Of a stretch of DNA of 64,000 nucleotides, positions 4,274 through 53,109 are shown one piece after another. A model generated the notes under the pieces. The model did not search any database. It was not told the origin of the DNA and saw only the letters and a program-made list of their open reading frames with translations. Position numbers and translations under genes: made by a program. Source of the stretch: Parasphingopyxis sp. (GTDB taxonomy: Bacteria > Pseudomonadota > Alphaproteobacteria > Sphingomonadales > Sphingomonadaceae); NCBI RefSeq assembly GCF_028279465.1, contig NZ_JANQNS010000003.1, forward strand, positions 101,386-165,385, given 5' to 3'. The stretch's first letter is position 1. Each line of letters starts with the position of its first letter.

Positions 4274-5341
4274 ATGGCGCTGGAAGATTATGGCTGGCTG
4301 GACCGGTCCATTCACCGGATCGCTTTCGGCACGAAGGTGCCCCAGGATTTTCTGCTCGACATGGAAGAGCGCCGCTACGGCGACCATATCGCGCGGCAAG
4401 AGATCGTTTCGCCGATATTCGTCACCGGGCTCGCCCGGGCGGGAACGACGCTGGTGCTCGAAACGCTCGCGCGGCACCCGCAACTCGCCACCCATCGCTA
4501 TCGGGATATGCCTTTCGTAATATCGCCGATTATCTGGCGCGACCTGTCCGGCCGGTTCCAGGTCGCGCAGGAAAAGAAGGAGCGCGCGCACAAGGACGGG
4601 CTGGAGGTGAACACCGATAGCGCCGAAGCCTTTGAAGAGGTGTTGTGGATGCGCGCCTTTCCCGATCACTTTGGCAAGGATGGCATCAAGCTTTGGGACA
4701 CGCTTCCGAGCGCGTTTGTCAAAGATTTCCGTCGTCATATGCAGCGCGTGATTGTCGCGCGGGACGCCAAGGGCAGTGCGCAGCCGCGCTATCTTTCCAA
4801 AAATAACGGCAACATTTCCCGGCTGCCGGCGCTCAAAAACGCCTTTCCCGATGCCAGGGTCGTTGTGCCGCTACGGCATCCGCTCGATCATGCGCGCTCG
4901 CTTTTGAAACAGCACCAGCTCGCATCGCAATCGCATGCGGAAAGCGGCTTTGCGCGCAGTTACGTTTCCGATATCGGGCATTTCGAATTTGGCGATGTTC
5001 ATCGCCCTTTTTTGTTCGAAGGCATGTCCGAGATCGTTCGGGATTATAGCCCCGATGACTATGCCTATTGGCTTCATTACTGGATCGCAGCCCACCGGCA
5101 TCTGGCGGGGCAAAGCGATATCGAGATCGTCGATATGGAGCGGTTTACGAACGAACGGCATATCGCAGACCTGCTCGCGCGCCTCGAACTCGATCCCTGC
5201 GCCGATGTTGTCCGGAGCGCGCAGGAGCAGATCAGACCGATAAAGCGCTATGACGGATCGCCTGATGCGGACGCTGAAACGGTAGAGGCGGCGATGGCGA
5301 TCTATGAACAGATGCGCAACCGCAAAGACTGCCTGCTTTAG
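4274..5341 (+). CDS. PAPS-dependent sulfotransferase family protein
   Basis: 5'-PSB-like TGLARAGTT and 3'-PB-like RHPLD motifs; 355 aa. Confidence 0.65.
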   Translation: MALEDYGWLDRSIHRIAFGTKVPQDFLLDMEERRYGDHIARQEIVSPIFVTGLARAGTTLVLETLARHPQLATHRYRDMPFVISPIIWRDLSGRFQVAQEKKERAHKDGLEVNTDSAEAFEEVLWMRAFPDHFGKDGIKLWDTLPSAFVKDFRRHMQRVIVARDAKGSAQPRYLSKNNGNISRLPALKNAFPDARVVVPLRHPLDHARSLLKQHQLASQSHAESGFARSYVSDIGHFEFGDVHRPFLFEGMSEIVRDYSPDDYAYWLHYWIAAHRHLAGQSDIEIVDMERFTNERHIADLLARLELDPCADVVRSAQEQIRPIKRYDGSPDADAETVEAAMAIYEQMRNRKDCLL

Positions 5342-5423
5342 GACGGCGATCGGCCATAGGGTCGCTAACCCGTCCTTAACCGTAAATCTCTAGTTTCTTC
5401 GGCGAAACTTCGTTCGAGGCCCC

Positions 5424-6962
5424 ATGTTCGCATCACTCTCAATGGGGCCATTTGGCCCACCGAATACGGCTTCGCGGCAGCTGTCGCAAATAGGCCTGTT
5501 CGTGCCCGCGATCGCCCTTTTCGTGGTCGTCAACCTGCTCAATCCCAGCGGCTATCGTGGTGCCGGCGGCGATGACTGGTATTATCTGGAGGCGGCGCGA
5601 TGCTTGGCAGAGGGTGGGGCGTGCCTGCCGACGACGCATTGGGAAACCCGCTGGCCGGTCACGGCCCCGCTAGGCTGGAGCCTCGCGCTTTTCGGCGAAA
5701 GCCGCCTTTCGGTATCGCTGGTGCCGCTTCTCTACTCACTAACGGCGCTCGGGCTGTTCGCCGTGCTGATGGTGCGGCAGTTTGGTCGTGCCGCTGCGGG
5801 CATCGGCCTGTTCTGCCTCATCGCGACCCCTGCGCTCGCGCAGAGTTTTTTGCGCCCCAATCCGGGCCTGCCTGAGTTATGTTTCGCCCTCGCCTCGCTC
5901 CTGGCTATCCAGGGCGCGGCACGCGCGGGGAACGATCGGTGGATGATGGTGTTGCTGTCATTGGCCGGTGCGTCGCTCGCCATCGCGATTGCCTGCCGCG
6001 CGACATCCATCGTGCTGCTGCCGCCTGCCGCTTTGCTCGTAATCATCGTCGCCGGGTTTTCGACACGCGCGATGATGGCGTTTGTGGGCGGCATATTGGC
6101 GCCGCTATTGCTACAATCCTGCTTCTACCTGTTGGCGACCGGCGATCCGCTTTTCAATTGGCGCCTCGCGCTCGGCCATACCCGCATTGCGTCCACCGAA
6201 TTATTGCCGGGTACGGATACAAGCCGATCGCCGCTCTTCAATCCAGACTTTATTGACGGATGGCGTCCGGCCAGTGGCATTGAGGTGCACTGGACCCTCG
6301 ATCCGTTGCTGAACCTTCTCGCCCATCCCCATGTTGCGCTTGCTCTTGTCCTGCCGGTGATTTTCGCGCTGATCTGGAAAGCGCAGGCCGGCCGGTTCCA
6401 TCCTCTTACGCCGGTGGTGGCCGGCCTGTTCCTGTTCGGCGCCTATTATTTCGCCGCTCTCGCCTATGGGCTGGCCGTTGATCCAAAACCCCGCATGTTC
6501 TTCCCCGTGGCCGCCGCGGGCGCCGCGATCATGGGCGCGGTGGGCAGTGCCTCGTGGCGCAGCAGGGGTAAGCTACCATTGCTTGGCGCCATGGCGCTTT
6601 TCGGGGCGAATGCGCTGTTGATATCCGCACAGTATCTCGACATCCGGCCGCTGGAACGCGAGGCGCGTCACTGGGCGGCGCAGGGCCGGAACAGCCTGGC
6701 AACCGACGAAATGACATGGCGCATCCTGACACTGGAGCCCGCCGTTCATGCGCTCACACATACCGATGCCGATCGTGCGGCGCGGCTAATTGCCGTGTTC
6801 GAAGGGCAGTGTGATGCGCAGTCCGGCCGCCTGCCTAACGGGCGCTGGCATGTGACGCGTGAAACCGTGCACCGTTCCAGCCCTGCCATGCAGCTGGGCG
6901 ATCTCGTGCCGGCTGGACGGCGCCCGCTGGTGCTGTGCCTTTTTGAGAGGGTTTCGACCTAG
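5424..6962 (+). CDS. GT-C fold glycosyltransferase (GT39/GT83, ArnT/PMT-like) membrane protein
   Basis: Multi-TM; N-terminal periplasmic-loop motif [10 protein letters not shown] resembles the DE-x-YY-E-A motif of the ArnT/PMT family. Confidence 0.5.
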
Positions 6963-8899
6963 CGCAAGTCTGGCGGTGTTGCCTCTCCGCCAATCATCTC
7001 CACCGCCTCATCGAGCGGCATCACCTTCTGGTGCTTGTCGGAGCCCAGCTGACGTAGCGCGATTGTACCCTCTTCCGCCTCGCGCTTGCCGACAACGAGG
7101 AGATTTGGCACTTTGGCATGGCTGTGTTCGCGCACCTTATAGTTGATCTTCTCGTTCCGAAGATCGGATTCGACGCGGATACCCGCGGCCTTGAGCGTGG
7201 CAACAACCTCTTGCGCATAGTCATCGGCGTCCGAGACGATAGTGGCAACCACCGCCTGCACTGGTGCCAGCCACAGAGGCAATTTTCCGGCATAGTGCTC
7301 GATCAGAATGCCGATAAACCGTTCCAGCGAACCGAAGAGCGCGCGGTGCAGCATGACCGGGCGATGGCGCTCGCCATCCTCGCCGATATAGCCGATGTCG
7401 AAGGCTTCGGGCAGGTTCATATCGACCTGCAGCGTGCCGCACTGCCAATCGCGGCCAATCGCATCGCGCAACACGAACTCCAGCTTTGGTCCGTAAAACG
7501 CGCCTTCGCCCTCATTGATTGAATATTCGAGGTCCATAGCGTCGAGTGTATCGATCAGCGAGCCTTCAAGCACGTCCCAGACTGCGTCTGAACCCATGCG
7601 GTTTTCCGGTCGCGTCGAAAGCTTGAGCCGCACATCCTCAAAACCAAACTCGCGATAGATATCGAGTACGAGCGCAACCACGTCTCGGTTCTCATCATTG
7701 AGCTGCTCGGGTGTGCAAAAGATATGCGCATCATCTTGCGTAAAATGCCGTACCCGCATGAGACCATGCAGCGCTCCTGACGGTTCATAGCGGTGCACCT
7801 TGCCGAATTCGGCCATGCGCAGCGGCAGATCGCGATAGCTTTTCAGGCCATGGGCGAATAGCGACACGCCGCCGGGGCAGTTCATCGGTTTCAAGGCAAA
7901 GACGCGGTCATCTTCGGTTTGCGTCGTGAACATATGCTCATGATAGTTGAACCAATGGCCCGAGGTTTCCCACAAGCTACGGTCCATCACGTCGGGCGTG
8001 TTCACCTCGACATAACCGGCGCGCTCCTGCCGGCGGCGCATATAGGCGATCAAACCCCGGAACAGGTGCCAGCCATTGGGGTGCCAGAAGACCGCGCCGG
8101 GCGCGAATTCCTCGAAATGGAACAGGTCGAGCTCGCGGCCCAGTTTGCGATGGTCGCGCTTGGCGGCTTCCTCGAGCCGGTGGAGATGCGCCTTGAGCTG
8201 TTTCTTGTTGAGCCAGGCGGTGCCATAGACACGGCTCAGCATCGCGTTCTTCTGATCGCCGCGCCAATAGGCCCCGGCCACGCGCATGAGCTTGAAGGCC
8301 TGCGGGTCGAGCTTGCCGGTACTGGCCAGATGCGGCCCGCGACACATGTCCATCCAGTCATCACCCGACCAATAGACGGTGATCTCCTCGCCCTCGGGCA
8401 ATTCCTTGGCCCATTCGGCCTTGAAGCTTTCGCCGTCCTTTTCCCAGCGCTCGATCAGCGCGTCGTGCTCCCAGACTTCGCGGCGCAACGGTTTGTCGGC
8501 CTTGATGATCCGCCGCATCTCTTCCTCGATTGCGGGCAGGTCTTCCTCAGTCAGCGGCTCTTTCGGCGCGAAATCGTAATAGAAGCCATCCTCGGTCGCG
8601 GGGCCGAAGGTAATCTGCGTGCCGGGAAAGAGGTTTTGCACGGCCTCGGCCAGCACATGGGCGAAGTCATGCCGGACGAGTTCGAGCGCATCGGCCTCGT
8701 CGCGCGAGGTAATCAGTTCCAGCGCGGCATCGCCATCGAAGGGCCGGCCGATATCGCGCACTTCTCCATCGACGCGCGCGGCCAGCGCGGCCTTGGCGAG
8801 CCCGGGGCCGATCGCGGCGGCAACATCGGCCGGCGTGGCCCCGGCTTCCATCTCGCGCACCGATCCATCGGGCAGGCTGATCTTGAACATCTCGCTCAT
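6959..8899 (-). CDS. thrS: threonine--tRNA ligase
   Basis: TGS domain start [10 protein letters not shown]; class II aaRS core; ORF-track upstream extension is probably not translated. Confidence 0.92.
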
Positions 8900-9268
8900 G
8901 ACATTTTCTCGTCCTGTTTGCGCGCCGCCATGGCACAGCATGGCCCGCGCTTGAAGAGCGGTGTGAAGCTTGGTTGCCGATTTTCGGGAGGACACCGCAC
9001 CACCCGAAACCGGGTGGCGAATGCTGCGACCTAGGCCGCGACCATCCGTCCCCGGGGATCCGAGGTCGTAGTGGTCGTGCGCGTGGTCAGCAAAATGGCC
9101 ATGCGCGTCATATAGCGATGCTATGTTGCGATGTCACTAACGGCCAAGATTAGGCCGTTGGCGGTGGCTTGTCGGTCATCTACCGATGGGGCACCATGGT
9201 GGGATGACCGACAGCCATCATCGCGCGCGTTTTAGCGAGAGAAGGCCCTGGAAGGAGGATTGGTAGAC

Positions 9269-9877
9269 ATGAGCACCACCGTCGATTTCATTTTCGATTT
9301 CGCGAGCCCCAACGCCTATCTCGTCCATCGCGTGCTGCCGGGCATTGCGGAGCGGACGGGTGCGACGTTCAACTATATCCCCTGTCTCTTGGGCGGAATT
9401 TTCAAGGCGACGGGGAACAAGGCGCCGATGGTCGCCTATGCGCCGATCCCCAACAAGCTCGCCTACGAGCAGCTCGAATTCGGACGCTTCATTGCCAAAC
9501 ACCAACTGTCCGACTTCACCTTCAATCCGCACTTCCCCGTCAACACGGTGCTGCTCCAGCGCGGGGCTCTCGTCGCCGAGCGCGACGGGCGGCTGATGGA
9601 CTATGTCGAGGCCGGCCTCCACCATATGTGGGAAGCGCCGAAGAAGATGGACGATCCGGAAGCCTATGCGGCGGCGATGGACGAATCCGGTTTCGATGGC
9701 ACGGCGCTCGTCGAAGGCGCGCAGGATGCCGGAATCAAGCAGAAGTTGATCGACAATACGAGCACGGCGGTTGAGCGCGGCGCTTTCGGCATCCCGACCT
9801 TCTATGTCGGCGACGACATGTTCTTCGGCAAGGAACGGCTCGGCCAGCTCGAAGAGGCGATAGTAGCCGCTAGCTGA
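9269..9877 (+). CDS. 2-hydroxychromene-2-carboxylate isomerase / DsbA-like thioredoxin family protein
   Basis: FDFASPNAYL N-terminus typical of the HCCA isomerase family; GGAGG RBS. Confidence 0.7.
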   Translation: MSTTVDFIFDFASPNAYLVHRVLPGIAERTGATFNYIPCLLGGIFKATGNKAPMVAYAPIPNKLAYEQLEFGRFIAKHQLSDFTFNPHFPVNTVLLQRGALVAERDGRLMDYVEAGLHHMWEAPKKMDDPEAYAAAMDESGFDGTALVEGAQDAGIKQKLIDNTSTAVERGAFGIPTFYVGDDMFFGKERLGQLEEAIVAAS

Positions 9878-26740: not shown

Positions 26741-27482
26741 GATAGACAATCTCCACGCCGAAATCGGCGGAACCGAAATTCTCAAGGGCCTGAGCCTCGA
26801 AATCGCGGCTGGCGAAATCCACGCGATCATGGGGCCCAATGGTGCGGGCAAATCGACGCTCGCCTATGTGCTGGGCGGCCGCGACGGCTATGAGGTCACC
26901 CAGGGTTCGGCCACTTATGATGGCGAAGACCTGCTCGATATGGACCCGCACGAGCGGGCAGCGGCCGGGCTCTTCCTCGGCTTTCAATATCCGGTCGAGA
27001 TTCCGGGCGTTTCCAACGTCCAGTTTCTGCGCACGGCGCTCAATGCCCAGCGCAAGGCGCGGGGGCAGGAGGAGCTGTCCGGCGGCGATTTTCTGAAGCT
27101 CGCGCGCGAACAGGCGAGCGCGCTCAAGATGAATGCCGAGATGCTGAAGCGCGCCGTCAATGTCGGCTTTTCGGGTGGCGAGAAGAAGCGCAACGAGATG
27201 GTCCAGATGGGCATCATCGACCCGAAGCTCGCGATCCTCGACGAAACCGATAGCGGCCTCGATATCGACGCGCTGCGCACCGTGGGCGAGGGGATCAACA
27301 CGATTATGAGAAAGCCCGAAAAGGCCGTGCTGCTGATCACGCACTATCAGCGCCTGCTCGACGTGGTGAAGCCTGATTATGTGCATGTGCTGGTCGATGG
27401 CCGCATCGTCCGCACGGGCGGCGCGGACCTCGCGCACCAGCTCGAAGAGCAGGGCTATGAGGCGATAGCGGAAGCGGCATGA
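26733..27482 (+). CDS. sufC: Fe-S cluster assembly ATPase SufC
   Basis: Walker A GPNGAGKST; ABC signature FSGGEKKR. Confidence 0.95.
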   Translation: MLKIDNLHAEIGGTEILKGLSLEIAAGEIHAIMGPNGAGKSTLAYVLGGRDGYEVTQGSATYDGEDLLDMDPHERAAAGLFLGFQYPVEIPGVSNVQFLRTALNAQRKARGQEELSGGDFLKLAREQASALKMNAEMLKRAVNVGFSGGEKKRNEMVQMGIIDPKLAILDETDSGLDIDALRTVGEGINTIMRKPEKAVLLITHYQRLLDVVKPDYVHVLVDGRIVRTGGADLAHQLEEQGYEAIAEAA

Positions 27483-28240
27483 CCGAGACTCTCCAGCTTC
27501 CCACCCGTCGCGACGAGGCGTGGCGCTATGCCGATCTTGATGCGCTCGCGCCGGTCTGGCCCGATATCGCCGGCAAACGAGAGGAGATTCTCGTTTCCGC
27601 TGGCGAGTCCGCGAGCCGCCAGCTCATCCTCGAAGCCAGCGACCCCAATGTCGCGGTCGAGACGCTTGCGATCAGGCTGGAGAAGAATGCGCGCTTTGCA
27701 CTGCACTGCTTGGCCATTGGTGCCGACTATGGCCGCATTGCCGTTGAAGTGACCTTGGCCAAAGGCGCGCATTTCGAGCTGGGCGGGGCGATCCTCGGCA
27801 CTGGCGACCAGACGCTCGAAATCGTGACAGACGTTCGCCATATCGAGCCCGGCGGCACGAGCAATCAGGTCGTGCGCAGCGTGCTCGGCGAAACCGCGAC
27901 CGGCTCGTTCCTTGGCAAAGTGTCGGTCGCGCGCGATGCGCAGAAGATCGATGCATCGCAATCGGTGAAAGCCATGCTGCTCGACCGGACGGCGACAGCG
28001 AATGCCAAGCCTGAGCTCGAAATCTTCGCCGACGATGTGAAATGCGCGCATGGCGCAACGGTCGGCGAGCTTGATAAGCAGGCGCTCTTCTATCTCGCCT
28101 CGCGCGGCATCCCGCCCGCTGAAGCGCGGCGGCTGATGCTCCAGGCCTTCATCGCAGACGCCTTTGTCAGCCTCGAAGACGAAGCCGCGCATGATGCGAT
28201 CGAAGCCAAGGCGCTGGCCGTGCTGGAGGCGATCACATGA
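27479..28240 (+). CDS. sufD: Fe-S cluster assembly protein SufD (short form)
   Basis: SufBD-family C-terminal region; position in operon. Confidence 0.8.
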   Translation: MTETLQLPTRRDEAWRYADLDALAPVWPDIAGKREEILVSAGESASRQLILEASDPNVAVETLAIRLEKNARFALHCLAIGADYGRIAVEVTLAKGAHFELGGAILGTGDQTLEIVTDVRHIEPGGTSNQVVRSVLGETATGSFLGKVSVARDAQKIDASQSVKAMLLDRTATANAKPELEIFADDVKCAHGATVGELDKQALFYLASRGIPPAEARRLMLQAFIADAFVSLEDEAAHDAIEAKALAVLEAIT

Positions 28241-29451
28241 ACGTTATGACCGCCCCTGCACCGATAGACGTACGCGCCCATTTCCCGGGGCTCGGCGATA
28301 GCTGGCGCTATCTGGATACGGCGGCGACGGCGCAGAAGCCGCAAGCCGTTATCGACGCGATCGCATCCGGCTATGGCGAGAAATATGCGACCGTCCATCG
28401 CGGCGTCTATGCGCGTTCCGCCGATATGACACTGGCCTATGAAGCCGCGCGACGGCGGGTTGCCGACTTTATTGGTGCGGCGTCCGACAGCGAGATCGTT
28501 TTCACGCGGGGCGCGACCGAGGCGATCAATCTCGTCGCGCATAGCTGGGGAAACCTGAACGTTCGCGCAGGCGATCGGATCATGCTGTCGCAGCTCGAAC
28601 ATCATTCTAACATCGTGCCTTGGCAGCTGCTCGCCGAGCGTGTCGGCGCGGAGATCGACGTTGCGCCGCTGACCGAAGATGGCCGGATCGATCTCGAAGC
28701 CATGGCAGACATGCTGACCGAGCAGCACAAACTCGTCGCGCTCGCCCATGTCTCCAACGTGCTCGGCTCGGTGCTCGATGTGCGCCGTGCGGCGGACCTC
28801 GCCCATGGCGTCGGCGCGAAGCTGCTGCTCGACGGGTGCCAGGCCGTGCCGCGCCTCCCCGTCGATGTGCAGGCGCTGGGCTGCGATTTCTACGTCTTTT
28901 CCGCGCACAAGCTGTACGGCCCGACCGGGATCGGCGCGCTTTGGGCGCGCGGCGAGATACTGGACGCGATGCCGCCGTGGGAAGGCGGCGGATCTATGAT
29001 CGACAAGGTTGCTTTCACCGGCACGACCTATGCGCCGCCGCCCCAGCGCTTCGAGGCGGGTACCCCGCATATCGTCGGCGCGCTCGGCCTGCATGCGGCG
29101 ATCGACTATGTATCGGACATCGGCCTCGATGCGATCCACGCGACCGAGGCGACGCTCGTTGCCGAAACACGCGATGCGCTGTCGCAGATCAACTCGGTGC
29201 GCCTGTTCGGGCCGGACGACAGCGCGGGCATCGTCAGCTTCGGGATTGAGGGCGTTCATCCGCACGATATCGGCACGATCCTCGACGAAGAGGGCGTGGC
29301 GATCCGCGCCGGTCATCATTGCGCGCAACCGCTGATGGCCTATCTCGGGGTCGACGCGACCGCGCGGGCGAGCTTCGGCGTTTACAACAGCAGCGAGGAT
29401 GTGACGGCGCTCGTTTCGGGCGTCAAACGCGTCACGCGGATATTCGGGTAA
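28237..29451 (+). CDS. sufS: cysteine desulfurase SufS
   Basis: Class V aminotransferase; PLP Lys in SAHKLYGPTG; active Cys in AGHHCAQPL. Confidence 0.92.
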   Translation: MNVMTAPAPIDVRAHFPGLGDSWRYLDTAATAQKPQAVIDAIASGYGEKYATVHRGVYARSADMTLAYEAARRRVADFIGAASDSEIVFTRGATEAINLVAHSWGNLNVRAGDRIMLSQLEHHSNIVPWQLLAERVGAEIDVAPLTEDGRIDLEAMADMLTEQHKLVALAHVSNVLGSVLDVRRAADLAHGVGAKLLLDGCQAVPRLPVDVQALGCDFYVFSAHKLYGPTGIGALWARGEILDAMPPWEGGGSMIDKVAFTGTTYAPPPQRFEAGTPHIVGALGLHAAIDYVSDIGLDAIHATEATLVAETRDALSQINSVRLFGPDDSAGIVSFGIEGVHPHDIGTILDEEGVAIRAGHHCAQPLMAYLGVDATARASFGVYNSSEDVTALVSGVKRVTRIFG

Positions 29452-42569: not shown

Positions 42570-42700
42570 TTGTCAGACCTTCGCTTCGCTCAGGCGTCGC
42601 ACCGGCCCGCTCCCCCTCCCGACCTCCCACAGGGTACACTTACTGGGAGGCCGGGACGGGGAGCGGGCCGGTGCCGCGATTTTCCGCTAGGAAAATTCTG
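42570..42700. repeat. extragenic long palindromic repeat, copy 1
   Basis: 35-bp arms (CACCGGCCCGCTCCCCCTCCCGACCTCCCA ... TGGGAGGCCGGGA(C/G)GGGGAGCGGGCCGGTGCCGCG) around a 13-nt loop; outer GTCAGACCTTCGC flank. Confidence 0.75.
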
Positions 42701-44612: not shown

Positions 44613-45500
44613 TTGCGGATGAGCGGCGTTTTCACGACACGTTTTGCCCCCAGCCCGACCGGGCGGCTCCATCTCGGCCATGCCTATTCGGCGCTGATGG
44701 CGTTCGATGCCGCACGCGCGGAGGGCGGGAAGTTTCTGCTGCGGTTCGAAGATATCGATACCGGCCGGGTGCGCGACGAATATTATGCTGCGATCGAAGA
44801 AGACCTGCACTGGCTCGGCATCACATGGGACGAGGAGCCGATACGCCAGTCCGAGCGGTTCGATATCTATGCGAAGGCGCTGGAAGATCTGCGGGCGGGA
44901 GACGTCGTCTATCCCTGTTTCTGCACGCGCAAGGATATTGCTACCGAGATCGCTGCGAGCGCGAGCGCGCCGCATGGCCCGGATGGCCCTCTATACCCCG
45001 GTACATGCCGCCGGCTTGATGCCGGGGAGCGCGCGCACCGTCTGGCCAACGAACCGCATGCCTGGCGCATCGATATGACGCGCGCGGCTGCGCTGACCGG
45101 GCCGCTTTATTGGACCGATGCCGAGGCCGGGGAAGTCGAGGCGCAGCCCGAAATCCATGGCGATGTCGTACTGGCGCGCAAAGATGTGCCTACATCCTAT
45201 CATCTCGCTGTCACCATCGACGACGCGGCGCAGGGTATCACCGATGTGATCCGCGGGTCCGACCTGATCGCCGCGACGCATGTGCACCGGCTGCTACAAC
45301 ATCTGCTGGACCTGCCGGTGCCGCGCTATCGGCATCACGAGCTTATCGCGGACGAGACGGGCAAACGGCTCGCCAAGCGCGACGATGCTCGTTCGCTGGC
45401 GGCCTTGCGTGATGCGGGCTGGTCAGGTGAAAAGGTCGCCGAAATGTTGAAAGGCGATGGCGTTGGCCTTGCCGCCGGGCTTCAGTCGAAAAGGGGGTGA
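44613..45500 (+). CDS. gluQ: tRNA glutamyl-Q(34) synthetase
   Basis: Class I HIGH motif (PSPTGRLHLGHA); truncated GluRS-like; about 290 aa. Confidence 0.85.
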   Translation: MRMSGVFTTRFAPSPTGRLHLGHAYSALMAFDAARAEGGKFLLRFEDIDTGRVRDEYYAAIEEDLHWLGITWDEEPIRQSERFDIYAKALEDLRAGDVVYPCFCTRKDIATEIAASASAPHGPDGPLYPGTCRRLDAGERAHRLANEPHAWRIDMTRAAALTGPLYWTDAEAGEVEAQPEIHGDVVLARKDVPTSYHLAVTIDDAAQGITDVIRGSDLIAATHVHRLLQHLLDLPVPRYRHHELIADETGKRLAKRDDARSLAALRDAGWSGEKVAEMLKGDGVGLAAGLQSKRG

Positions 45501-46153
45501 TCGCGCCTCAGGAAAACCACGTCATAATAGGTAGGCCGGCGCTTGAGCTTCCCGATGATATTGAAGAATTCCAGACCTCGCTCATGCATCGCGGCGACCA
45601 GTTCGCTGAACACATATCCGCCTATAAAGCGCTTCCGTATGCTCGCTTCGCAGATAACGAAAGAAATGCGGTGTGCGTGCTCGTTCAACCCTTTGATTAT
45701 CTGCTCCTCAAAGCCTTCTGTATCGATCTTCAGGCCAATCCACCCCGTCGGCGCATATTGTTCGATGAGCGAATCCAGCGTCACGACCTCGACGTCATAT
45801 TCATCCCTGAGTACGCCCTGACTGAGTTTTGTGCGCTCGACGAAACCCGTCTTCGGTCCCATTTCGTGCAGCAGCATAGAGCCTGGTTGAGCCCCCAGCG
45901 CCTTATTGACGAAAATCGAATTTTCAGGCGGGTCAAGAGCATGGATTCGGTCGTTCTTTATCGGGTCGACAAGAACAAATTTGCTTTCAGTGAACACGGT
46001 ATAGAGCTCGGGCGTGCCTCGAAAAACGCCGATATCGAATACCGTCGCTATATCCTCAAATTTTTTGAGCATAGCGAGCCCGAACAGTTGTTGTGGGCGT
46101 GCTCCTATATTTGGGTCCGTTAGGCCGGGCTCTTGTTCCTCTGTATCACTCAT
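45482..46153 (-). CDS. FkbM family methyltransferase
   Basis: LKIDTEGFE motif; locally AT-richer sequence. Confidence 0.65.
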   Translation of the reverse strand: MSDTEEQEPGLTDPNIGARPQQLFGLAMLKKFEDIATVFDIGVFRGTPELYTVFTESKFVLVDPIKNDRIHALDPPENSIFVNKALGAQPGSMLLHEMGPKTGFVERTKLSQGVLRDEYDVEVVTLDSLIEQYAPTGWIGLKIDTEGFEEQIIKGLNEHAHRISFVICEASIRKRFIGGYVFSELVAAMHERGLEFFNIIGKLKRRPTYYDVVFLRRDHPLFD

Positions 46154-46278
46154 TGCGTAACTTCCGTGTATTCAGGCCCCCTTTTGTGCCGGCCAATGAT
46201 CGTATCGTATATAGCCCAGCATTTCTTCCAAACGCCAAGCAGGCTGGCTTTCGCGCGTATCGCCACTATATTCAAGCC

Positions 46279-46500: not shown

Positions 46501-46645
46501 TAGGAGTTTCGTTTGTCAGACCTTCGCTACGCTCAGGCGCGGCACCGGCCCGCTCCCCCTCCCGACCTCCCACAGGGTATACTTAATGGGAGGCCGGGAG
46601 GGGGAGCGGGCCGGTGCCGCGCTCGACCACAAGGTCGAGTCTGAC
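46501..46645. repeat. extragenic long palindromic repeat, copy 2
   Basis: Same core as copy 1; same orientation. Confidence 0.75.
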
Positions 46646-46650
46646 GGACA

Positions 46651-47229
46651 ATGGTCAAGCTCACCAAAATCTACACGCGCACGGGCGATGACGGCCTGAC
46701 TGGGCTCGTCGACGGTTCGCGCGTGTCAAAGGCCGATGCACGCATGGCGGCGATCGGCGATGTCGACGAGGCGAACAGCGCAATCGGCGTCGTGATGGCG
46801 CAGGGGCCGGCGGAGCCCTATCGCGCGATGCTGGCGCGCATCCAGAATGAGCTCTTCGATCTGGGTGCCGATCTGGCGACGCCCGCCGCCGAGGATGATG
46901 ATTTCGCGCCCTCGGAGATGGTGCTGCGGATCACCGCGGGTCAGGTGACGCGGCTCGAGACCGAAATCGACGACATGAACGAGGTGCTGGAGCCGCTGAC
47001 CAGCTTTATCCTGCCGGGTGGCGATGCCGTGGCTGCCGGCGTTATGCTCGCCCGGGCCGTGGTCCGCCGTGCCGAGCGCATGGCGGTTGCGGCGGCTGGC
47101 GAGAACCGGCTCAACCCGCAGGCGCTCGCCTATATCAACCGGCTATCCGATCATCTATTCGTTATGGCCCGCGCGATCAATGCGGCGGGCAGTGGCGATA
47201 TCCTGTGGGAACCCGGTGCGACGAGTTGA
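46651..47229 (+). CDS. ATP:cob(I)alamin adenosyltransferase (PduO-type)
   Basis: MVKLTKIYTRTGDDGLTGL N-terminus. Confidence 0.88.
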   Translation: MVKLTKIYTRTGDDGLTGLVDGSRVSKADARMAAIGDVDEANSAIGVVMAQGPAEPYRAMLARIQNELFDLGADLATPAAEDDDFAPSEMVLRITAGQVTRLETEIDDMNEVLEPLTSFILPGGDAVAAGVMLARAVVRRAERMAVAAAGENRLNPQALAYINRLSDHLFVMARAINAAGSGDILWEPGATS

Positions 47230-47283
47230 TTAGCCATGGCACGCCAGATACATAAGCCGCTCTTGCCATAGTCAGAAGCGCCC

Positions 47284-48738
47284 ATGCCGACCTCCGATAC
47301 CACGCTTCTGCTCGCCGATATCGCCATCGCCAGAAATGCGGTCGAAGCGCGCTATCGGATCGCCGATCTCTCCTTCAGCACCGCCATCTGGTATGACAGC
47401 GTCGATTTCGACGATCTGCGCGCGCGGTTCGGTGCGGATTTCGTCGAACGGCTCGGCTTTCACATTGCCGCCTTTGAGATGAACAAAGTTGCGAGCCTCA
47501 AGCCCGCGCGAATCGATTGGGGCAAATATGGCCATTTCGCCGATGCCGATTTCAACCGGCTCTGGGCGAGTATTTTTGAGAACGTCTGGGCGCAATGGCG
47601 CTATGAAAACCGGATCACCGACTATCGCGTGCCCGAGCTGCCCGAGCCCGCCGCTCCGACCGCCGAACCCGTAGCGCGCGACCTGCCCGACGATTGCTAT
47701 CTCGCCTTTTGCGGGGGCGGGAAGGACAGCCTGCTTACGCTGAGTCTGCTGGGTGAACTCGGCGTGTCCTATGACAGTCTCGCCTATTCGGCCTCCTTTT
47801 ACGGCACGGCGCCGAAACAACATGCGCTGATTGACCGGCTGCTCGATCATGGCGCGCCGAGGCGGCGCCATAAACAATGGGTCAGCGATCAGTTTCTCGA
47901 TGTGCCGGTCACCGAGCTTCGCCCCGATTTCGGCGTCGAACACATAACTGCGGCCGAGACGCCGAGTTCGATCTTCGCCGCGCTGCCGATCGTGCTGGCG
48001 CACGGCCATCGCTATATCTGCCTTGCGCATGAGCGCAGCGCCGATACCGGGCAGGTCGAGTGGAATGGCGAGGACATCAACCATCAATGGGGCAAATCCT
48101 TCGCCGCCGAGGCGCTGCTCAACGGCTATATCCGCGACCATCTGATTGCCGATTTCGATTATTTCAGCATCCTGAAGCCGGTCTATGACGTGACGATCTT
48201 TGCTGCGCTGACCGGCGTCGAAGATGCGGTGCCCGCCACGCATAGCTGCAACATCTCCAAGCCCTGGTGTCTCGCCTGCCCCAAATGCCTCTATGTCTGG
48301 CTCGGCTATGCGGCCTTCCTCGATCGCGAAACGATGATCGCGACCTTTGGCGATGTGAACCTGCTCGATCGCGAAGAGAATATCTTCACCTATCGTCAGC
48401 TTGTCGGGCTCGAAGACCAGCTGCCCTTCGAATGTATCGGCCAGGCGCGCGAGGCGGCTCTGTTCATGCGGCTCGCCGAGCGGCGCGGCTGGTCCGGCTG
48501 CGCGATTGAAGCCTGCCGCGACGCGCTGGACGTGCTCGATCTGGAGCAAGTGGCGAGCGACTATACGGCACTCGATTTCGACTGCCCCAATATTCCCGCA
48601 TCGATCCGCGATGGGCTCGAGAGCCTGCTCGAACGATCGGCCGCTATCGCGCGCGAGCGGATTGCCGTACTTTCCGGTAGTGAAACTCCTGCCCCTCAAA
48701 GCGGAGGCGTTTATGAGCCCGTCCATGCTCGACGATAG
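47284..48738 (+). CDS. PP-loop ATP pyrophosphatase family protein (PAPS reductase/TtuA-like), function unknown
   Basis: FCGGGKDS P-loop (SGGKDS-type); C-terminal Cys cluster C-x7-C-x2-C-x2-C; 3' end overlaps egtB start by 26 nt. Confidence 0.6.
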   Translation: MPTSDTTLLLADIAIARNAVEARYRIADLSFSTAIWYDSVDFDDLRARFGADFVERLGFHIAAFEMNKVASLKPARIDWGKYGHFADADFNRLWASIFENVWAQWRYENRITDYRVPELPEPAAPTAEPVARDLPDDCYLAFCGGGKDSLLTLSLLGELGVSYDSLAYSASFYGTAPKQHALIDRLLDHGAPRRRHKQWVSDQFLDVPVTELRPDFGVEHITAAETPSSIFAALPIVLAHGHRYICLAHERSADTGQVEWNGEDINHQWGKSFAAEALLNGYIRDHLIADFDYFSILKPVYDVTIFAALTGVEDAVPATHSCNISKPWCLACPKCLYVWLGYAAFLDRETMIATFGDVNLLDREENIFTYRQLVGLEDQLPFECIGQAREAALFMRLAERRGWSGCAIEACRDALDVLDLEQVASDYTALDFDCPNIPASIRDGLESLLERSAAIARERIAVLSGSETPAPQSGGVYEPVHARR

Positions 48739-50002
48739 CCTATCACACGGCGATGCAACGCAAGACGATCTGGCGTCTTCCTATAATTCCGTCCGGCAAC
48801 TGAGCGCAGACCTCGCCGCCCCGCTCTCCGATGCCGACGCCACGGTTCAGTCGATGACTGATGCGTCGCCCGCCAAATGGCACCTCGCGCATGAAAGCTG
48901 GTTCTTCGAAACTTTCGTGCTGCGCGATCATGTCGATAGCTATAAACTGTTCGACGCCGAATGGCCGTTCCTGTTCAACAGCTATTACGAGGCCGAGGGC
49001 GAACGGCAGTTGCGCGCGCGGCGCGGCATGATCACGCGGCCGTCGCTTGAAGAGGTCCGCGCCTATCGTGCGTATGTTGATGAAGCACTGCTCGCCGCGC
49101 TGCCCAGTCTGGACGGCGAGACGCGGGCGCTGATCGAACTGGGACTCAATCACGAACAGCAGCATCAGGAATTGCTGCTGATGGATATCCAGCATCTCTT
49201 CGCGGAAAACCCGCTGGAGCCTGCCATGTTCGCCGCGCGGCCAGCCGATCCGGTGGATGCGGCGGGCGAACTGGGCTGGATCGAGGGCCGTAGCGGCGAG
49301 GCCGAAATCGGTTGCGATGGCACCGGTTTCGCGTTCGACTGCGAGGGGCCGCGGCACAAAGTCTATCTCAACCCCCACGCATTGGCCGACCGGCCGGTCA
49401 CGAATGGGGAGTGGATCGCGTTTATCGAGGATGGTGGCTATGCGGACCCCGCGCTTTGGCTCTCCGATGGTTGGACCTGGGTGCAGGACAACCGGATCGC
49501 TGCCCCGCTCTACTGGCGCACGCGCGACGACGGGGAATGGTATCGCTTTGGCCTTGCCGGCGCGCAGCCGATCGATCCGCACGCGCCGGTCTGTCATGTC
49601 AGCTATTATGAGGCCGACGCCTTTGCCCGCTGGACGGGATATCGCTTGCCGACAGAAGCGGAATGGGAAGCCGCCGCCGCGCCGCTCGATAGCCTTGCGG
49701 GCAATCAGCTCGATGCGGCTATGGAGCCGCGGCCCGCGGCGGTCCGTCCCGCCAAGGGGCTGCGTCAGATGTTCGGCGATGTGTGGGAATGGACGGCAAG
49801 CGCCTATCAGCCGCATCCGGGTTTCCGCGCGGCCAAAGGCGCGGTCGGCGAATATAATGGCAAGTTCATGGTCGGGCAGTATGTGCTGAAAGGCGCGAGC
49901 TGCGCCACGCCACGCGGCCATAGCCGGGCCAGCTACCGTAATTTCTTCTACCCGCATATGCGCTGGCAATTTGCGGGTCTGCGTCTCGCACGGGATCTCT
50001 GA
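48713..50002 (+). CDS. egtB: ergothioneine biosynthesis protein EgtB (sulfoxide synthase)
   Basis: DinB_2-like N-terminal domain plus FGE-sulfatase C-terminal domain; GGAGG RBS. Confidence 0.88.
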   Translation: MSPSMLDDSLSHGDATQDDLASSYNSVRQLSADLAAPLSDADATVQSMTDASPAKWHLAHESWFFETFVLRDHVDSYKLFDAEWPFLFNSYYEAEGERQLRARRGMITRPSLEEVRAYRAYVDEALLAALPSLDGETRALIELGLNHEQQHQELLLMDIQHLFAENPLEPAMFAARPADPVDAAGELGWIEGRSGEAEIGCDGTGFAFDCEGPRHKVYLNPHALADRPVTNGEWIAFIEDGGYADPALWLSDGWTWVQDNRIAAPLYWRTRDDGEWYRFGLAGAQPIDPHAPVCHVSYYEADAFARWTGYRLPTEAEWEAAAAPLDSLAGNQLDAAMEPRPAAVRPAKGLRQMFGDVWEWTASAYQPHPGFRAAKGAVGEYNGKFMVGQYVLKGASCATPRGHSRASYRNFFYPHMRWQFAGLRLARDL

Positions 50003-50003
50003 C

Positions 50004-50969
50004 ATGGCCGATACCGAAACCGATGCGGGCGTCGACCCCGCCTTTCGCCGCGACGTGCTCGCCGGACTCGAGGCGCGGCCGCGGGCCATTCCGGCGCGCT
50101 GGTTTTACGATCTGCGCGGTTCGGAACTGTTCGAGGAGATCACCGATCTGCCCGAATATTATCCCACGCGCGTCGAACGTTCGATCCTGGACGGACAGTC
50201 GGCGGCGATTGGCGACGCGATCGGCGCGGGGCAGGCGGTGGTCGAATTCGGGTCTGGTTCGTCGGCGAAGACGCCGTTGTTGCTCAACGCGATTTCCCCC
50301 GCCGCCTATGTGCCGATCGATATTTCGGGAGAGTTTCTGCGCGAATCCGCGGACGCGTTGAGCGCCGATTTTCCCGATCTGCCCGTCCATCCGGTCGAGG
50401 CGGATTTCACCCACCCGGTGTCGCTGCCCGCGGCGATTGCCGATTTGCCCAAGCTCGGCTTTTTCCCTGGCTCGACGATCGGCAATTTCACCCCGCCCCA
50501 TGCTGTCGATTTCCTGCGCGCAATGAAGGAGACGCTGGGCGAAGGCGCGCTACTCCTGATCGGCATGGACCGGATCAAGGGCGAGGATGTGCTCGTCCGC
50601 GCCTATGACGATGCGGCGGGCGTAACGGCGGCGTTCAATCTCAATCTGCTTGAACGGATCAATCGGGAACTCGACGGCGATATTCCTTTGGACACATTTC
50701 GCCACAAGGCTGTGTGGAACGACATGCTCGCCCGGATCGAGATGCATATCGAGGCGGCGCGCGACGTCGAATTTTCGGTGTCCGGGCGCGATTTCGCGAT
50801 GGCCGAAGGCGAGACGATCCATACCGAGAACAGCCACAAATACGGCCCGCGCGATGCCCGCATCCTGCTGCGTGCGGGCGGCTGGACGGTGACGCATGAA
50901 TGGACGGACGACGCGGATCAGTTCGCGCTGCTACTGGCCGAAGCGCGGCCCGAGGTCACGGCGCCTTAG
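50004..50969 (+). CDS. egtD: L-histidine N-alpha-methyltransferase EgtD
   Basis: Diagnostic PEYYPTR motif. Confidence 0.9.
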   Translation: MADTETDAGVDPAFRRDVLAGLEARPRAIPARWFYDLRGSELFEEITDLPEYYPTRVERSILDGQSAAIGDAIGAGQAVVEFGSGSSAKTPLLLNAISPAAYVPIDISGEFLRESADALSADFPDLPVHPVEADFTHPVSLPAAIADLPKLGFFPGSTIGNFTPPHAVDFLRAMKETLGEGALLLIGMDRIKGEDVLVRAYDDAAGVTAAFNLNLLERINRELDGDIPLDTFRHKAVWNDMLARIEMHIEAARDVEFSVSGRDFAMAEGETIHTENSHKYGPRDARILLRAGGWTVTHEWTDDADQFALLLAEARPEVTAP

Positions 50970-51110
50970 TTCGTCAGAATTTTCCTAGCAGAAAATCGCG
51001 GCGTCAGCCCGCTCCCCCTCCCGGCCTCCCACGAGTGTACCCTGAATGGGAGGCCGGGAGGGGGAGCGGGCTGGTGCCGCGCCTGAGGCGAAGCCGAAGG
51101 TCTGACAGAT
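50960..51110. repeat. extragenic long palindromic repeat, copy 3 (inverted orientation)
   Basis: Same core as copies 1 and 2 with flanks reverse-complemented. Confidence 0.75.
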
Positions 51111-52177
51111 TAAGGCTCAACCCACTCGACATTCGCCCGGTACACCGTGATCCAGTGCGGGCTGCCGCGGCAGCTGTTCATTTCGCGGCGCTCGACGAGG
51201 CGGAACATCGCGCCGTCCCAGACGAAGCGTTCGGCGGTCCCGCAATCGCCGATCCCGCGGCCCTTGGCATAGGTGCTGAGTTCGTTCGCGTCCGCGTTCC
51301 AATAGACATTGACGAGCAGCGGAATCTCCCGGTTCTCGCCCCAAGAGAAGGCCCGGTCGAACTGCGCTGGCGTCACCGCGCCGTCCGCGTCGCGGACATA
51401 GGCGACATCGCTGAAGTTATAAGCGCCCCGGCTGCAGGAAATCAGGATCAGATCGCGCGCGTCTGAGAGAACCATCGCCTCGTTGCGGCGTAGTTCCTCG
51501 TCGAACCCGTCGCATTCGCGCGCCTCGTGCAGCCGCATCGCCTGATCGGCGGGCAGGGCCATGGCGGTGTCGCCGGATCGGTCGGCGATGGGCATGGCGC
51601 GGATGGTGGTAACGGACGGCGGCTCGGGGACCAACGATGCGGGCTGGTCGCCGACGGCCGCCGACGCGGTCACCGTCCCGGCGCGTTGCTGGCGGTCTTC
51701 GATGAAGAGTATCGCCGCATAGGACCCGTCAAGCGATATGCTTTCGATCATCCCGCCATCGGGATCGCGCAGCTCGGCCTCGCCGCCCCGCGCCATGAGC
51801 CCGGCCAGACGCTGCGCACTCGCCGGATCGAAATGATAGAGTTCGTCGCCCTCGTTGCGTGTCGCCGTGCCCGCAAATTCGCCGTCCACGAGGAGCGTCA
51901 TCGTCGACGGCGCCTCGTCCTCGAAGGCGCGAATGCCGATACGGTGATAGCCGTCCGCGCCGCCCGCCCGGCGGACGGTAATCGAATAGCCATTGCCGAT
52001 TTCCCAGTCTTCGGTCGGCAGCGAGATCGCTTCGCAGGCCCAACCATTGTCGCAGCCCACGGCCCAGTCGCCGAACAAGCGGACGGTGCCGGGTTCGGGC
52101 GTCAGCGGTAGGGGGTGTGCATGGGCGGGGCTTTGCGCGGCGGCGGCGAGCGCGAGGAGCGTTTGGATCATGCGCAA
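51110..52177 (-). CDS. DUF1176 domain-containing secreted protein
   Basis: Signal peptide; FGDWAVGCDNGWACEA cysteine pattern. Confidence 0.5.
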   Translation of the reverse strand: MRMIQTLLALAAAAQSPAHAHPLPLTPEPGTVRLFGDWAVGCDNGWACEAISLPTEDWEIGNGYSITVRRAGGADGYHRIGIRAFEDEAPSTMTLLVDGEFAGTATRNEGDELYHFDPASAQRLAGLMARGGEAELRDPDGGMIESISLDGSYAAILFIEDRQQRAGTVTASAAVGDQPASLVPEPPSVTTIRAMPIADRSGDTAMALPADQAMRLHEARECDGFDEELRRNEAMVLSDARDLILISCSRGAYNFSDVAYVRDADGAVTPAQFDRAFSWGENREIPLLVNVYWNADANELSTYAKGRGIGDCGTAERFVWDGAMFRLVERREMNSCRGSPHWITVYRANVEWVEP

Positions 52178-52239
52178 AACTCTAGCCGATCCTGCGCCTG
52201 CGCGGTAGTGACCGGCGTCACATAGAAGGAAGGATAATC

Positions 52240-53109
52240 ATGCAGGCAGTCGGTGTTATCGGGGCGGGGCAGATGGGTGCGGGGATCGCGCAGGTTTCGG
52301 CGCAGGCCGGCTATCGCGTCTATCTGTCGGATGTCAGCCTCGAGGTCGCGGAGAAGGCGCGCGATGGGATCGCCCGGCAGCTCGGCAGGCTGGTCGAGAA
52401 GGAGAAGCTCGAAGCCCAGGCGCGCGACGTGGCGCTCGAGCGGATCGAGCCGGTCGGCGAGTTCGCGCCGATGGCGAATGCAGGCCTGATCATCGAGGCG
52501 GCGACTGAACGCGAGGATATCAAGCGGAAAATCTTCGAAGAAGTCGGCAAGATATTGGGGCATGACGCAATCCTCGCTTCCAACACCTCGTCGATTTCGA
52601 TCACCCGCCTCGCTCAGGCGTCCACCGATGCCGAACGCTTTATTGGCGTGCATTTCTTCAACCCCGTCCCGCTGATGGGGCTGATCGAAGTGATCCGCGG
52701 GCTAGCGACATCGGACAAGACGGTCGAGCGGGTCGAGCACTATGCAACCGCGCTCGGCAAGCGCACAGTCCATGCCAACGATGCGCCGGGCTTTATCGTC
52801 AACCGCGTGTTGCTGCCGATGCTCAACGAAGCCTGTTTCGCGTTGGGCGAGAGTGTGGCTGGGATCGAAGATATCGATGCGGCCTGCCAGCTCGGCCTCA
52901 ACCATCCGATGGGGCCGCTGACGCTTGCAGACTTTATCGGCCTCGATACCTGCCTGCACATCACCAATGTGCTCTATGCGGGGACCGGCGATCCCAAATT
53001 CCGGGCCGCACCGCTGCTCGTCAAATATGTCGAAGCCGGCTGGCTTGGGCGGAAGACGGGTAAGGGCTTTTACGATTATTCGGGCGATACGCCGCAGCCG
53101 ACGCGGTGA
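52240..53109 (+). CDS. hbd: 3-hydroxybutyryl-CoA dehydrogenase
   Basis: NAD-binding GVIGAGQMG; 3HCDH family. Confidence 0.88.
   Translation: MQAVGVIGAGQMGAGIAQVSAQAGYRVYLSDVSLEVAEKARDGIARQLGRLVEKEKLEAQARDVALERIEPVGEFAPMANAGLIIEAATEREDIKRKIFEEVGKILGHDAILASNTSSISITRLAQASTDAERFIGVHFFNPVPLMGLIEVIRGLATSDKTVERVEHYATALGKRTVHANDAPGFIVNRVLLPMLNEACFALGESVAGIEDIDAACQLGLNHPMGPLTLADFIGLDTCLHITNVLYAGTGDPKFRAAPLLVKYVEAGWLGRKTGKGFYDYSGDTPQPTR

Follow-up and report, generated by a model that had tools for sequence, protein, structure and literature searches.

The egt operon of Parasphingopyxis sp.

The stretch of DNA analysed here (64,000 nucleotides from Parasphingopyxis sp., contig NZ_JANQNS010000003.1, positions 101,386 to 165,385; hereafter the window) contains egtB and egtD, two genes of ergothioneine biosynthesis. 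Directly in front of them lies a gene for a PP-loop protein of 484 amino acids. This protein is a member of a distinct subfamily of the MurL family, and its gene is translationally coupled to egtB-egtD. The features of the operon, in window coordinates, are the following:

47284..48738 (+), MurL-family, QueC-fold PP-loop ATP-pyrophosphatase gene; 484 aa, member of the egt-associated subfamily
47710..47730 (+), PP-loop C143-GGGKDS-149, ATP pyrophosphate-binding motif; its counterpart is the SGGxDS hallmark of QueC (PMC13329287)
48247..48288 (+), putative QueC-type zinc-binding ribbon C322-x6-C329-x2-C332-x2-C335; all four Cys invariant
48424..48441 (+), PFECIG motif with the fifth cysteine C384; invariant in the subfamily and in genuine MurL
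48713..48738 (+), overlap of 26 nt in which the MurL-like gene ends and egtB begins; seen in the sequence, recurs in L001 and L002
48713..50002 (+), egtB (hercynine sulfoxide synthase); TIGR03440 584 bits vs cut-off 360, Pfam DinB_2 and FGE-sulfatase
50004..50969 (+), egtD (L-histidine N-alpha-methyltransferase); TIGR03438 379 bits vs cut-off 290.9, PF10017

The ATG of egtB at 48713 is situated five bases past a GGAGG Shine-Dalgarno sequence (48703-48707), and the stop codon of the MurL-like gene ends at 48738, inside egtB. The TGA of egtB (50000-50002) is followed by one base, c, and then by the ATG of egtD at 50004 (TGAcATG). Both the 26-nt overlap and the one-nucleotide gap had been given in a preliminary description of this DNA, and both are confirmed in the sequence. 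EgtB and EgtD of the window are above the NCBIfam equivalog cut-offs and therefore represent a bona fide egtBD pair. Compared with the canonical ergothioneine gene sets (egtABCDE, the two-gene egtBD, eanAB, and egtD with MES), the window keeps the usual egtB-egtD order with a 1-nt gap. There is no egtE in the operon. Weak matches to an ABC ATPase and a class V aminotransferase are located at 26769-29433 of the window, and no closer egtE-like gene was found in the window with the class V pyridoxal phosphate (PLP) enzymes used as queries. Base composition of the MurL-like gene is the same as that of egtB (GC content at third codon positions, GC3, 0.72 vs 0.73). A chance open reading frame (ORF) is excluded because more than 980 homologues of the protein are found at E<=1e-3, and the overlap is also kept in two metagenome-assembled genomes (MAGs), L001 and L002. 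Scans for promoters, terminators and Rfam families between 44 and 53 kb of the window gave nothing informative.

A QueC-fold enzyme of the MurL family

An identical protein (P0001) is recorded as a hypothetical protein of Parasphingopyxis sp. The Pfam families PF26299 (MurL_N) and PF26298 (MurL_epimerase_C) are precomputed for P0001 and for all homologues. The sole NCBIfam match is NF041275 (MurL_Xanthmoales). This match is sub-threshold (134.7 bits vs cut-off 700) and nearly full-length, with residues 86-408 aligned to model positions 88-404 of 447. Other members of the subfamily reach 100-119 bits on the same model. In a copy of Pfam without the two MurL models, no family matches the 484-aa protein even at E<=10. 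There is also no match to the QueC profile PF06508, and the sequence search of PDB gives no meaningful match. In a set of 1.84 billion representative proteins, 1833 clusters (E<=1e-3) belong to the superfamily. Its clades can be told apart by domain fusions; P0385, for example, is a fusion of MurL and a Mur ligase, which corresponds to the canonical function. In P0360 (1170 aa) and P0368 (920 aa), a distant MurL-like domain (29-31% identity) is joined to a flavin-dependent monooxygenase (Pyr_redox_3, FMO-like), and these two proteins form a further uncharacterised clade of the superfamily.

Residues 141-149 of the 484-aa protein read A-F-C-G-G-G-K-D-S, and G144-S149 are invariant in an alignment of 28 homologues, in agreement with the CGGGKDS P-loop reported previously for this protein. 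The cysteines C322, C329, C332, C335 and the fifth cysteine C384 (in PFECIG) are all invariant in the same alignment. The preliminary description was right about the four-cysteine cluster in the C-terminal part but gave the first spacing as x7, while the true spacing is x6. The pattern, C(x)6CxxCxxC, is a variant of the zinc-binding C(x)8CxxCxxC that together with the SGGxDS loop is a hallmark of QueC (PMC13329287). Judging from its sequence, the Cys4 ribbon probably binds zinc. The Rossmann-type PP-loop fold of the protein superposes on QueC, and the closest solved folds found by fold search are QueC, Cap9 and the nitrile synthetase ArtA. The protein differs from QueC and from the QueC-family defence enzymes Cap9 and QatC by the Cys spacing (x6, not x8) and by additional N-terminal (1-110) and C-terminal helical (345-465) domains, and the MurL-specific motifs are not among the QueC hallmarks given in PMC13329287. 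Both QueC and Cap9 activate a carboxylate, and QueC-family enzymes perform ATP-dependent amidation or protein conjugation (PMC13329287). The protein had initially been placed with PAPS reductases and TtuA. This assignment has to be abandoned, as neither PF01507 nor any TtuA-type model in Pfam or NCBIfam matches, the family is MurL, and neither the closest structural neighbour nor the three-cysteine [4Fe-4S] pattern speaks for it. The 484-aa protein is a PP-loop enzyme of the carboxylate-adenylating QueC/MurL kind, not of the sulfur-transfer kind.

Genuine MurL requires ATP and Mg2+, releases AMP and epimerises N-acylated L-Glu in the L-to-D direction only (PMC5808125; PMC8788868). It is thought to adenylate the alpha-carboxylate, but the mechanism is unsolved (PMC5808125; PMC8788868). 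As a control we used murL of Xanthomonas sacchari, found in a search of a plasmid collection. This gene is annotated as such and overlaps murD, and its product reaches 836.5 bits with the MurL model. X. sacchari MurL is 28% identical to the window protein over 330 residues, belongs to the same family and has a similar length (450-480 aa). Genuine MurL shares the motifs GGGKDS, (H/N)E.SA, NHQW.K, SCN..WC..C.KC and PFEC.G..E with the window protein; indeed, every motif conserved between the subfamily and genuine MurL is kept there. Motifs such as VWAQWRYEN, AAETPSSIF and FHIAAFE.NK, on the other hand, are invariant in the subfamily and distinguish it from genuine MurL. The genomic partners are different as well. 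While genuine murL either overlaps with murD2 or forms one protein with a Mur ligase, the subfamily never adjoins murD2, and neither the 64-kb window nor the 10 kb around each of the ~88 subfamily loci contains a MurD/MurD2-like match. Instead, its partners are egtD, egtB, MES, betaine importers and a CorA-like protein. It is important to note that MurL acts on an amino acid whose alpha-amine is blocked. Hercynine and ergothioneine likewise have a blocked alpha-amine together with a free alpha-carboxylate. Our comparison of motifs and partners leads to the conclusion that the subfamily is likely to use the catalytic machinery of MurL on a different substrate.

A plasmid-borne MurL homologue is present in Pseudonocardia alni (plasmid pPaSha1, L084 5305-6705) and on two other Pseudonocardia plasmids. 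With 323 bits on the MurL model it lies between genuine MurL and the egt-associated subfamily, and its P-loop reads GGGRDS. Its neighbour encodes a large protein with WD40 repeats, and the annotation of the surrounding 12.7-kb stretch contains no murD.

Association with ergothioneine genes in at least five phyla

Scanning one genome per species gave 301 relatives, and gene neighbourhoods were taken from the best 80 loci. These loci were searched with EgtB and EgtD of the window (tblastn), and all ORFs within 7 kb were clustered. EgtD is encoded within ~6 kb in 24 of the 80 loci. EgtB is found by a strong match in 16 loci, and four more have divergent sulfoxide-synthase-like proteins with DinB_2 and FGE-sulfatase domains (20 in total). 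A higher count for EgtB, 30 loci, which came from a BLAST single-linkage cluster, was dropped since FGE-sulfatase and kinase proteins were mixed in, and the tblastn result was used. A betaine-type ABC ATPase occurs in 21 loci and a permease/substrate-binding fusion importer (BPD_transp_1 + OpuAC, ~505-570 aa) in 15. These four are the neighbour families present in the largest numbers of loci; apart from antisense artefacts, no further family exceeds 10 of the 80. Heavy-metal P-type ATPases are neighbours in 5 loci. For 48 loci, 5 kb or more of flanking sequence is available on both sides; EgtD is present in 17 of them (35%) and EgtD or the importer in 21 (44%). For a random gene, we estimate that egtD would be within 7 kb in far less than 1% of cases, a value derived from genome sizes and not measured. 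The egtD-linked loci belong to Alpha- and Gammaproteobacteria, Myxococcota, Bacteroidota, Acidobacteriota and Chloroflexota, that is, to at least five phyla. They show many gene orders and orientations and are scattered across the whole subfamily tree, in which a long branch separates the subfamily from genuine MurL. The link between the subfamily and ergothioneine genes is real. The possibility that the adjacency seen in Parasphingopyxis is coincidental, raised in the preliminary description, does not survive the finding of EgtD near 24 of 80 loci.

Individual loci differ in the way ergothioneine would be made or acquired. In a locus of Saprospiraceae (L065), a class V PLP enzyme, EgtB, the MurL-like protein, EgtD, the ABC ATPase and the importer are all encoded, in this order, on a single strand, and both EgtB and EgtD are above the cut-offs. 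Two Thiotrichaceae loci have EgtD together with a 1135-aa fusion of molybdopterin oxidoreductase and NifS (MES, the anaerobic synthase) and are without EgtB. L018 combines EgtD, the ABC importer and the MurL-like gene, and there is no sulfur-inserting enzyme within 8 kb. The importer has the architecture of the ergothioneine importer EgtU, and its substrate-binding domains are nearer to archaeal ProX and OpuC than to Firmicute EgtU. We refer to it only as a betaine-type importer with the EgtU architecture.

Three further observations were made in these neighbourhoods. The MES-type fusions (~1135 aa) lie beside EgtD in Thiotrichaceae MAGs, at L017 4514-7921 and L024 4262-7786. MES homologues have been described as confined to strict anaerobes (PMC9516567), and their presence in large sulfur bacteria is perhaps noteworthy in that respect. 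The divergent protein with DinB_2 and FGE-sulfatase domains (425 aa) adjoins a bona fide EgtD in L055, L056, L058 and L063 (e.g. L058 2564-3841). It does not reach the cut-off of any of the three models EgtB, OvoA and SenA and may be an unclassified type of sulfoxide or selenoxide synthase. A B12-binding/radical-SAM protein (~520 aa; Radical_SAM, weak TIGR04013) adjoins the MurL-like gene in 7 loci from three phyla: L013 (11340-12944), L010, L024, L026, L039, L043 and L063. It is often accompanied by EgtD and a heavy-metal P-type ATPase, which suggests a further-tailored histidine-betaine product in Thiomargarita/Beggiatoa-type bacteria and others.

Insertion of the gene between pduO and egtB

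Comparison with related genomes gave two more features:

46651..47229 (+), PduO-type cob(I)yrinic acid a,c-diamide adenosyltransferase gene; TIGR00636 180 bits, and synteny
47230..48811 (no strand), lineage-specific insertion relative to P. algicola, P. marina and Sphingomonas baiyangensis; from gene maps and blastn

The window shares with P. algicola, P. marina and S. baiyangensis the gene order HNH, GluQ-RS-like, HIG_1_N, PduO, EgtB, EgtD, DUF1176 (opposite strand) and 3HCDH. In these three species pduO is directly followed by egtB-egtD, without the MurL-like gene. By blastn, positions 46610-47223 of the window (pduO) correspond to 4904-5506 of the P. algicola locus (L089), and positions 48812-52500 (egtB onwards) to 5809-9514. 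The ~1.58 kb between the two matched segments has no counterpart in L089. The MAGs L001 and L002 (85-88% nucleotide identity) carry the same insertion together with the 26-nt overlap. As the sister species have pduO-egtB-egtD without the MurL-like gene, the gene is inserted between pduO and egtB in this Parasphingopyxis lineage. pduO itself is a conserved upstream neighbour of egtBD in Sphingomonadaceae and probably has no part in the pathway.

A membrane protein as a possible second partner

Another recurrent neighbour is C13, a protein of 452-463 aa, whose gene in Erythrobacteraceae often overlaps the MurL-like gene by 4-8 nt. C13 is also found 3' of the MurL-like gene in L088, L092 and L066, and the last of these has a betaine importer too. 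P0258 and P0289 are fusions of C13 and the enzyme (hhalign probabilities 99.7% and 99.6%). No match to C13 was found in Pfam, in NCBIfam or in the PDB sequence search; the sole lead is the fold search, by which it is CorA-like. As a rule, the enzyme thus seems to be coupled to a membrane protein of the transport type, and it may serve purposes beyond ergothioneine. Members without egt neighbours in L085, L088 and L092 are situated among PIN, HicB, DUF433, Bro-N, SLFN_AlbA_2 and IS110 genes. PADLOC models gave no match for the enzyme, C13 or the neighbours (eight proteins searched).

Possible function of the MurL-like enzyme

The best reading of these data is that a MurL-type ATP-dependent enzyme may have been recruited to ergothioneine or hercynine metabolism. 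The compound common to the contexts with EgtB, with MES, with import and with EgtD alone is hercynine or ergothioneine, whereas the sulfoxide intermediate specific to EgtB is not common to them. We therefore consider hercynine (N-alpha-trimethylhistidine) or ergothioneine as the candidate substrate, which would undergo ATP-driven adenylation and then epimerisation at C-alpha; in our estimation this assignment falls somewhat short of an even chance. PLP racemases are unable to act on amino acids with a blocked alpha-amine. In the proposed mechanism, ATP would adenylate the alpha-carboxylate of the N-blocked amino acid with the release of AMP and PPi, and adenylation would acidify the C-alpha proton. 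A base, for which C384 is a candidate (it could alternatively serve as a thioester nucleophile), would remove this proton and return it, and the D-epimer would be freed by hydrolysis. Trp and Tyr residues specific to the subfamily (W94, W102, W105, Y168, Y173 and W199) are candidates for an aromatic cage around the trimethylammonium group near the PP-loop. Such an enzyme would be a 2-epimerase that acts on a betaine in one direction, driven by ATP. We propose the same type of reaction as in MurL because the protein has lost none of the MurL motifs that lie outside the ATP and zinc sites. Taken more generally, the subfamily would catalyse a hitherto unrecognised ATP-dependent step of ergothioneine or hercynine metabolism in at least five phyla, most likely epimerisation to D-ergothioneine or D-hercynine; physical coupling to the CorA-like membrane protein or to a betaine importer would be a feature of some lineages. 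We assign a probability of about 0.3 to this reading.

A functional analogue would be found in the enolase superfamily, among its betaine 2-epimerases (proline betaine / 4-hydroxyproline betaine 2-epimerase). These enzymes similarly epimerise the C-alpha of an N-trimethylated amino acid and are encoded beside betaine ABC transporters, but they have an unrelated fold and use metal-assisted enolisation without ATP, in a reversible reaction.

Several facts do not fit easily with a role in ergothioneine metabolism. In about half (~55%) of the loci with good flanks, neither an egt gene nor one for a betaine transporter lies within 7 kb. The closest sequence relatives, those of Erythrobacteraceae, have no egt gene in their 10-kb flanks and have the CorA-like C13 directly downstream instead. 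In three metagenomic contexts that lack egt genes, genes of toxin-antitoxin or defence type abound. As to the chemistry, the N-acylated substrate of MurL would permit an oxazolone route, which a trimethylammonium substrate could not follow. Finally, neither D-ergothioneine nor D-hercynine appears anywhere in the searchable literature.

With these points in mind, other explanations have to be weighed. It is conceivable that the primary partner is the membrane transport-type protein (C13, the betaine ABC importer or the heavy-metal P-type ATPase) and that some other cationic solute or a protein is processed. Adjacency to egt genes would then reflect a shared stress or location in a variable island. 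This is unlikely, yet among the alternatives it is the one we take most seriously. It is at odds with the position of the pathway-specific EgtD among the commonest neighbours, across at least five phyla and several gene orders (in one of which the gene separates egtB from egtD), and with the exact insertion into the egt operon with translational coupling; the lack of a PADLOC match for the enzyme, C13 and their neighbours also counts against it. If the substrate is hercynine or ergothioneine, the adenylate could also be captured by ammonia or another amine, as is the outcome in QueC and Cap9, and an amide, nitrile or conjugate would be formed, not the D-epimer. Such a reaction would agree with the closest solved folds and with the known amidation and conjugation activities of QueC-family enzymes, and the B12/radical-SAM enzyme beside the gene in 7 loci suggests that the product is tailored further in some clusters. 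However, NHQW.K and PFEC.G..E, both outside the ATP and zinc sites, are strictly kept, which argues for the post-adenylation chemistry of MurL, and the neighbourhoods contain no conserved amine-donor or glutaminase partner. We regard amine capture, the chief alternative for the fate of the adenylate, as rather unlikely.

The remaining explanations are far less probable. A sulfur-mobilising PP-loop enzyme of the TtuA/LarE type, providing an alternative sulfur route or a thiocarboxylate, is very improbable, given that TtuA and PAPS-reductase profiles fail to match and that the four-cysteine C..CxxCxxC is of the QueC zinc type. Sulfur-transferring LarE has either three cysteines for a [4Fe-4S] cluster or one sacrificial cysteine (PMC13329287). 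Moreover, C384 is also present in MurL, which does no sulfur chemistry. The gene co-occurs with EgtB and MES, which are complete and mutually unrelated sulfur inserters, and another sulfur donor is therefore unnecessary. Thus, of the two roles suggested in the preliminary description, the alternative sulfur donor is not supported, while modification of ergothioneine or hercynine is retained as the best reading. It is equally hard to accept that the enzyme is a PLP-independent stand-in for the C-S lyase EgtE, although the operon in the window has no egtE. Adenylation of the cysteine carboxylate in hercynyl-cysteine sulfoxide could lead to beta-elimination, since alpha-deprotonation of the MurL type beside a beta leaving group would plausibly eliminate it; this point is an inference only. 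But the gene is also found beside MES, which converts hercynine to ergothioneine directly without a sulfoxide intermediate, and with importers alone. Class V PLP enzymes weakly similar to EgtE co-occur with it in L065 and L013, and sister species run egtBD without the MurL-like gene. A general role of this kind is excluded because the shared metabolite is hercynine or ergothioneine and not the EgtB-specific sulfoxide. Least credible of all is that the protein is genuine MurL, the cell-wall epimerase. Some databases do name homologues so, and the family and motifs are shared. Nevertheless, it reaches 135 bits vs a cut-off of 700, compared to 836 for the genuine control, and there is no MurD/MurD2 in the window or within 10 kb of the ~88 loci. 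The gene is missing at the locus in P. algicola and P. marina, and no NCBI-sourced homologue with at least 60% identity comes from either species. An essential cell-wall gene would not show such a pattern of presence and absence among congeners.

Significance

Ergothioneine pathways have been studied intensively, including the enzymes EgtA-E, EanAB and MES and the transporters EgtUV and OCTN1. No ATP-pyrophosphatase is described for egtABCDE, egtBD, eanAB or egtD with MES in the searchable literature, as the preliminary description had also stated. Full-text search found no paper that ties MurL or PP-loop enzymes to ergothioneine, and ergothioneine amide is likewise unmentioned; many subscription journals are outside this search, and a prior description is possible. 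A survey of the QueC family from 2026 is silent on both MurL and ergothioneine (PMC13329287).

A conserved accessory enzyme would imply a product or intermediate of the pathway that has so far not been recognised, possibly a D-isomer, an amide or a conjugate. This would have consequences for the measurement of ergothioneine, the protection of the producer from degradation or piracy, and the engineering of production strains. If the enzyme is indeed an ATP-driven epimerase of hercynine or ergothioneine, it would be the first betaine epimerase acting via an acyl-adenylate and would give the first natural D-form of the antioxidant ergothioneine. It would also provide a second physiological role for the MurL family, which is so far known from a single reaction, and a small and cheap substrate would make the mechanism of MurL easier to study.

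Repeats and a recent insertion near the operon

Two further elements flank the pduO-murL-like-egtB-egtD block:

46538..46621 (no strand), near-perfect palindromic element of 84 nt, upstream copy; predicted fold -94 kcal/mol
51007..51081 (no strand), palindromic element, copy just 3' of egtD; from sequence and fold prediction

A third copy is located at 42599-42678. The three copies have a GC-rich stem of ~35 bp and predicted folds of -87 to -94 kcal/mol. The palindrome is also present 3' of egtD in P. algicola (L089 7999-8082). It looks like an intergenic repeat of the REP type or a terminator-like one.

Upstream of the first of these two elements, an FkbM-family methyltransferase gene (45482-46153, - strand) has a GC content of 0.516 vs 0.623 for the window. 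The gene is missing from the syntenic loci of P. algicola, P. marina and S. baiyangensis and also from L001 and L002, where positions 45420-46275 of the window are unmatched. The FkbM gene is a very recent second insertion beside the egt locus.

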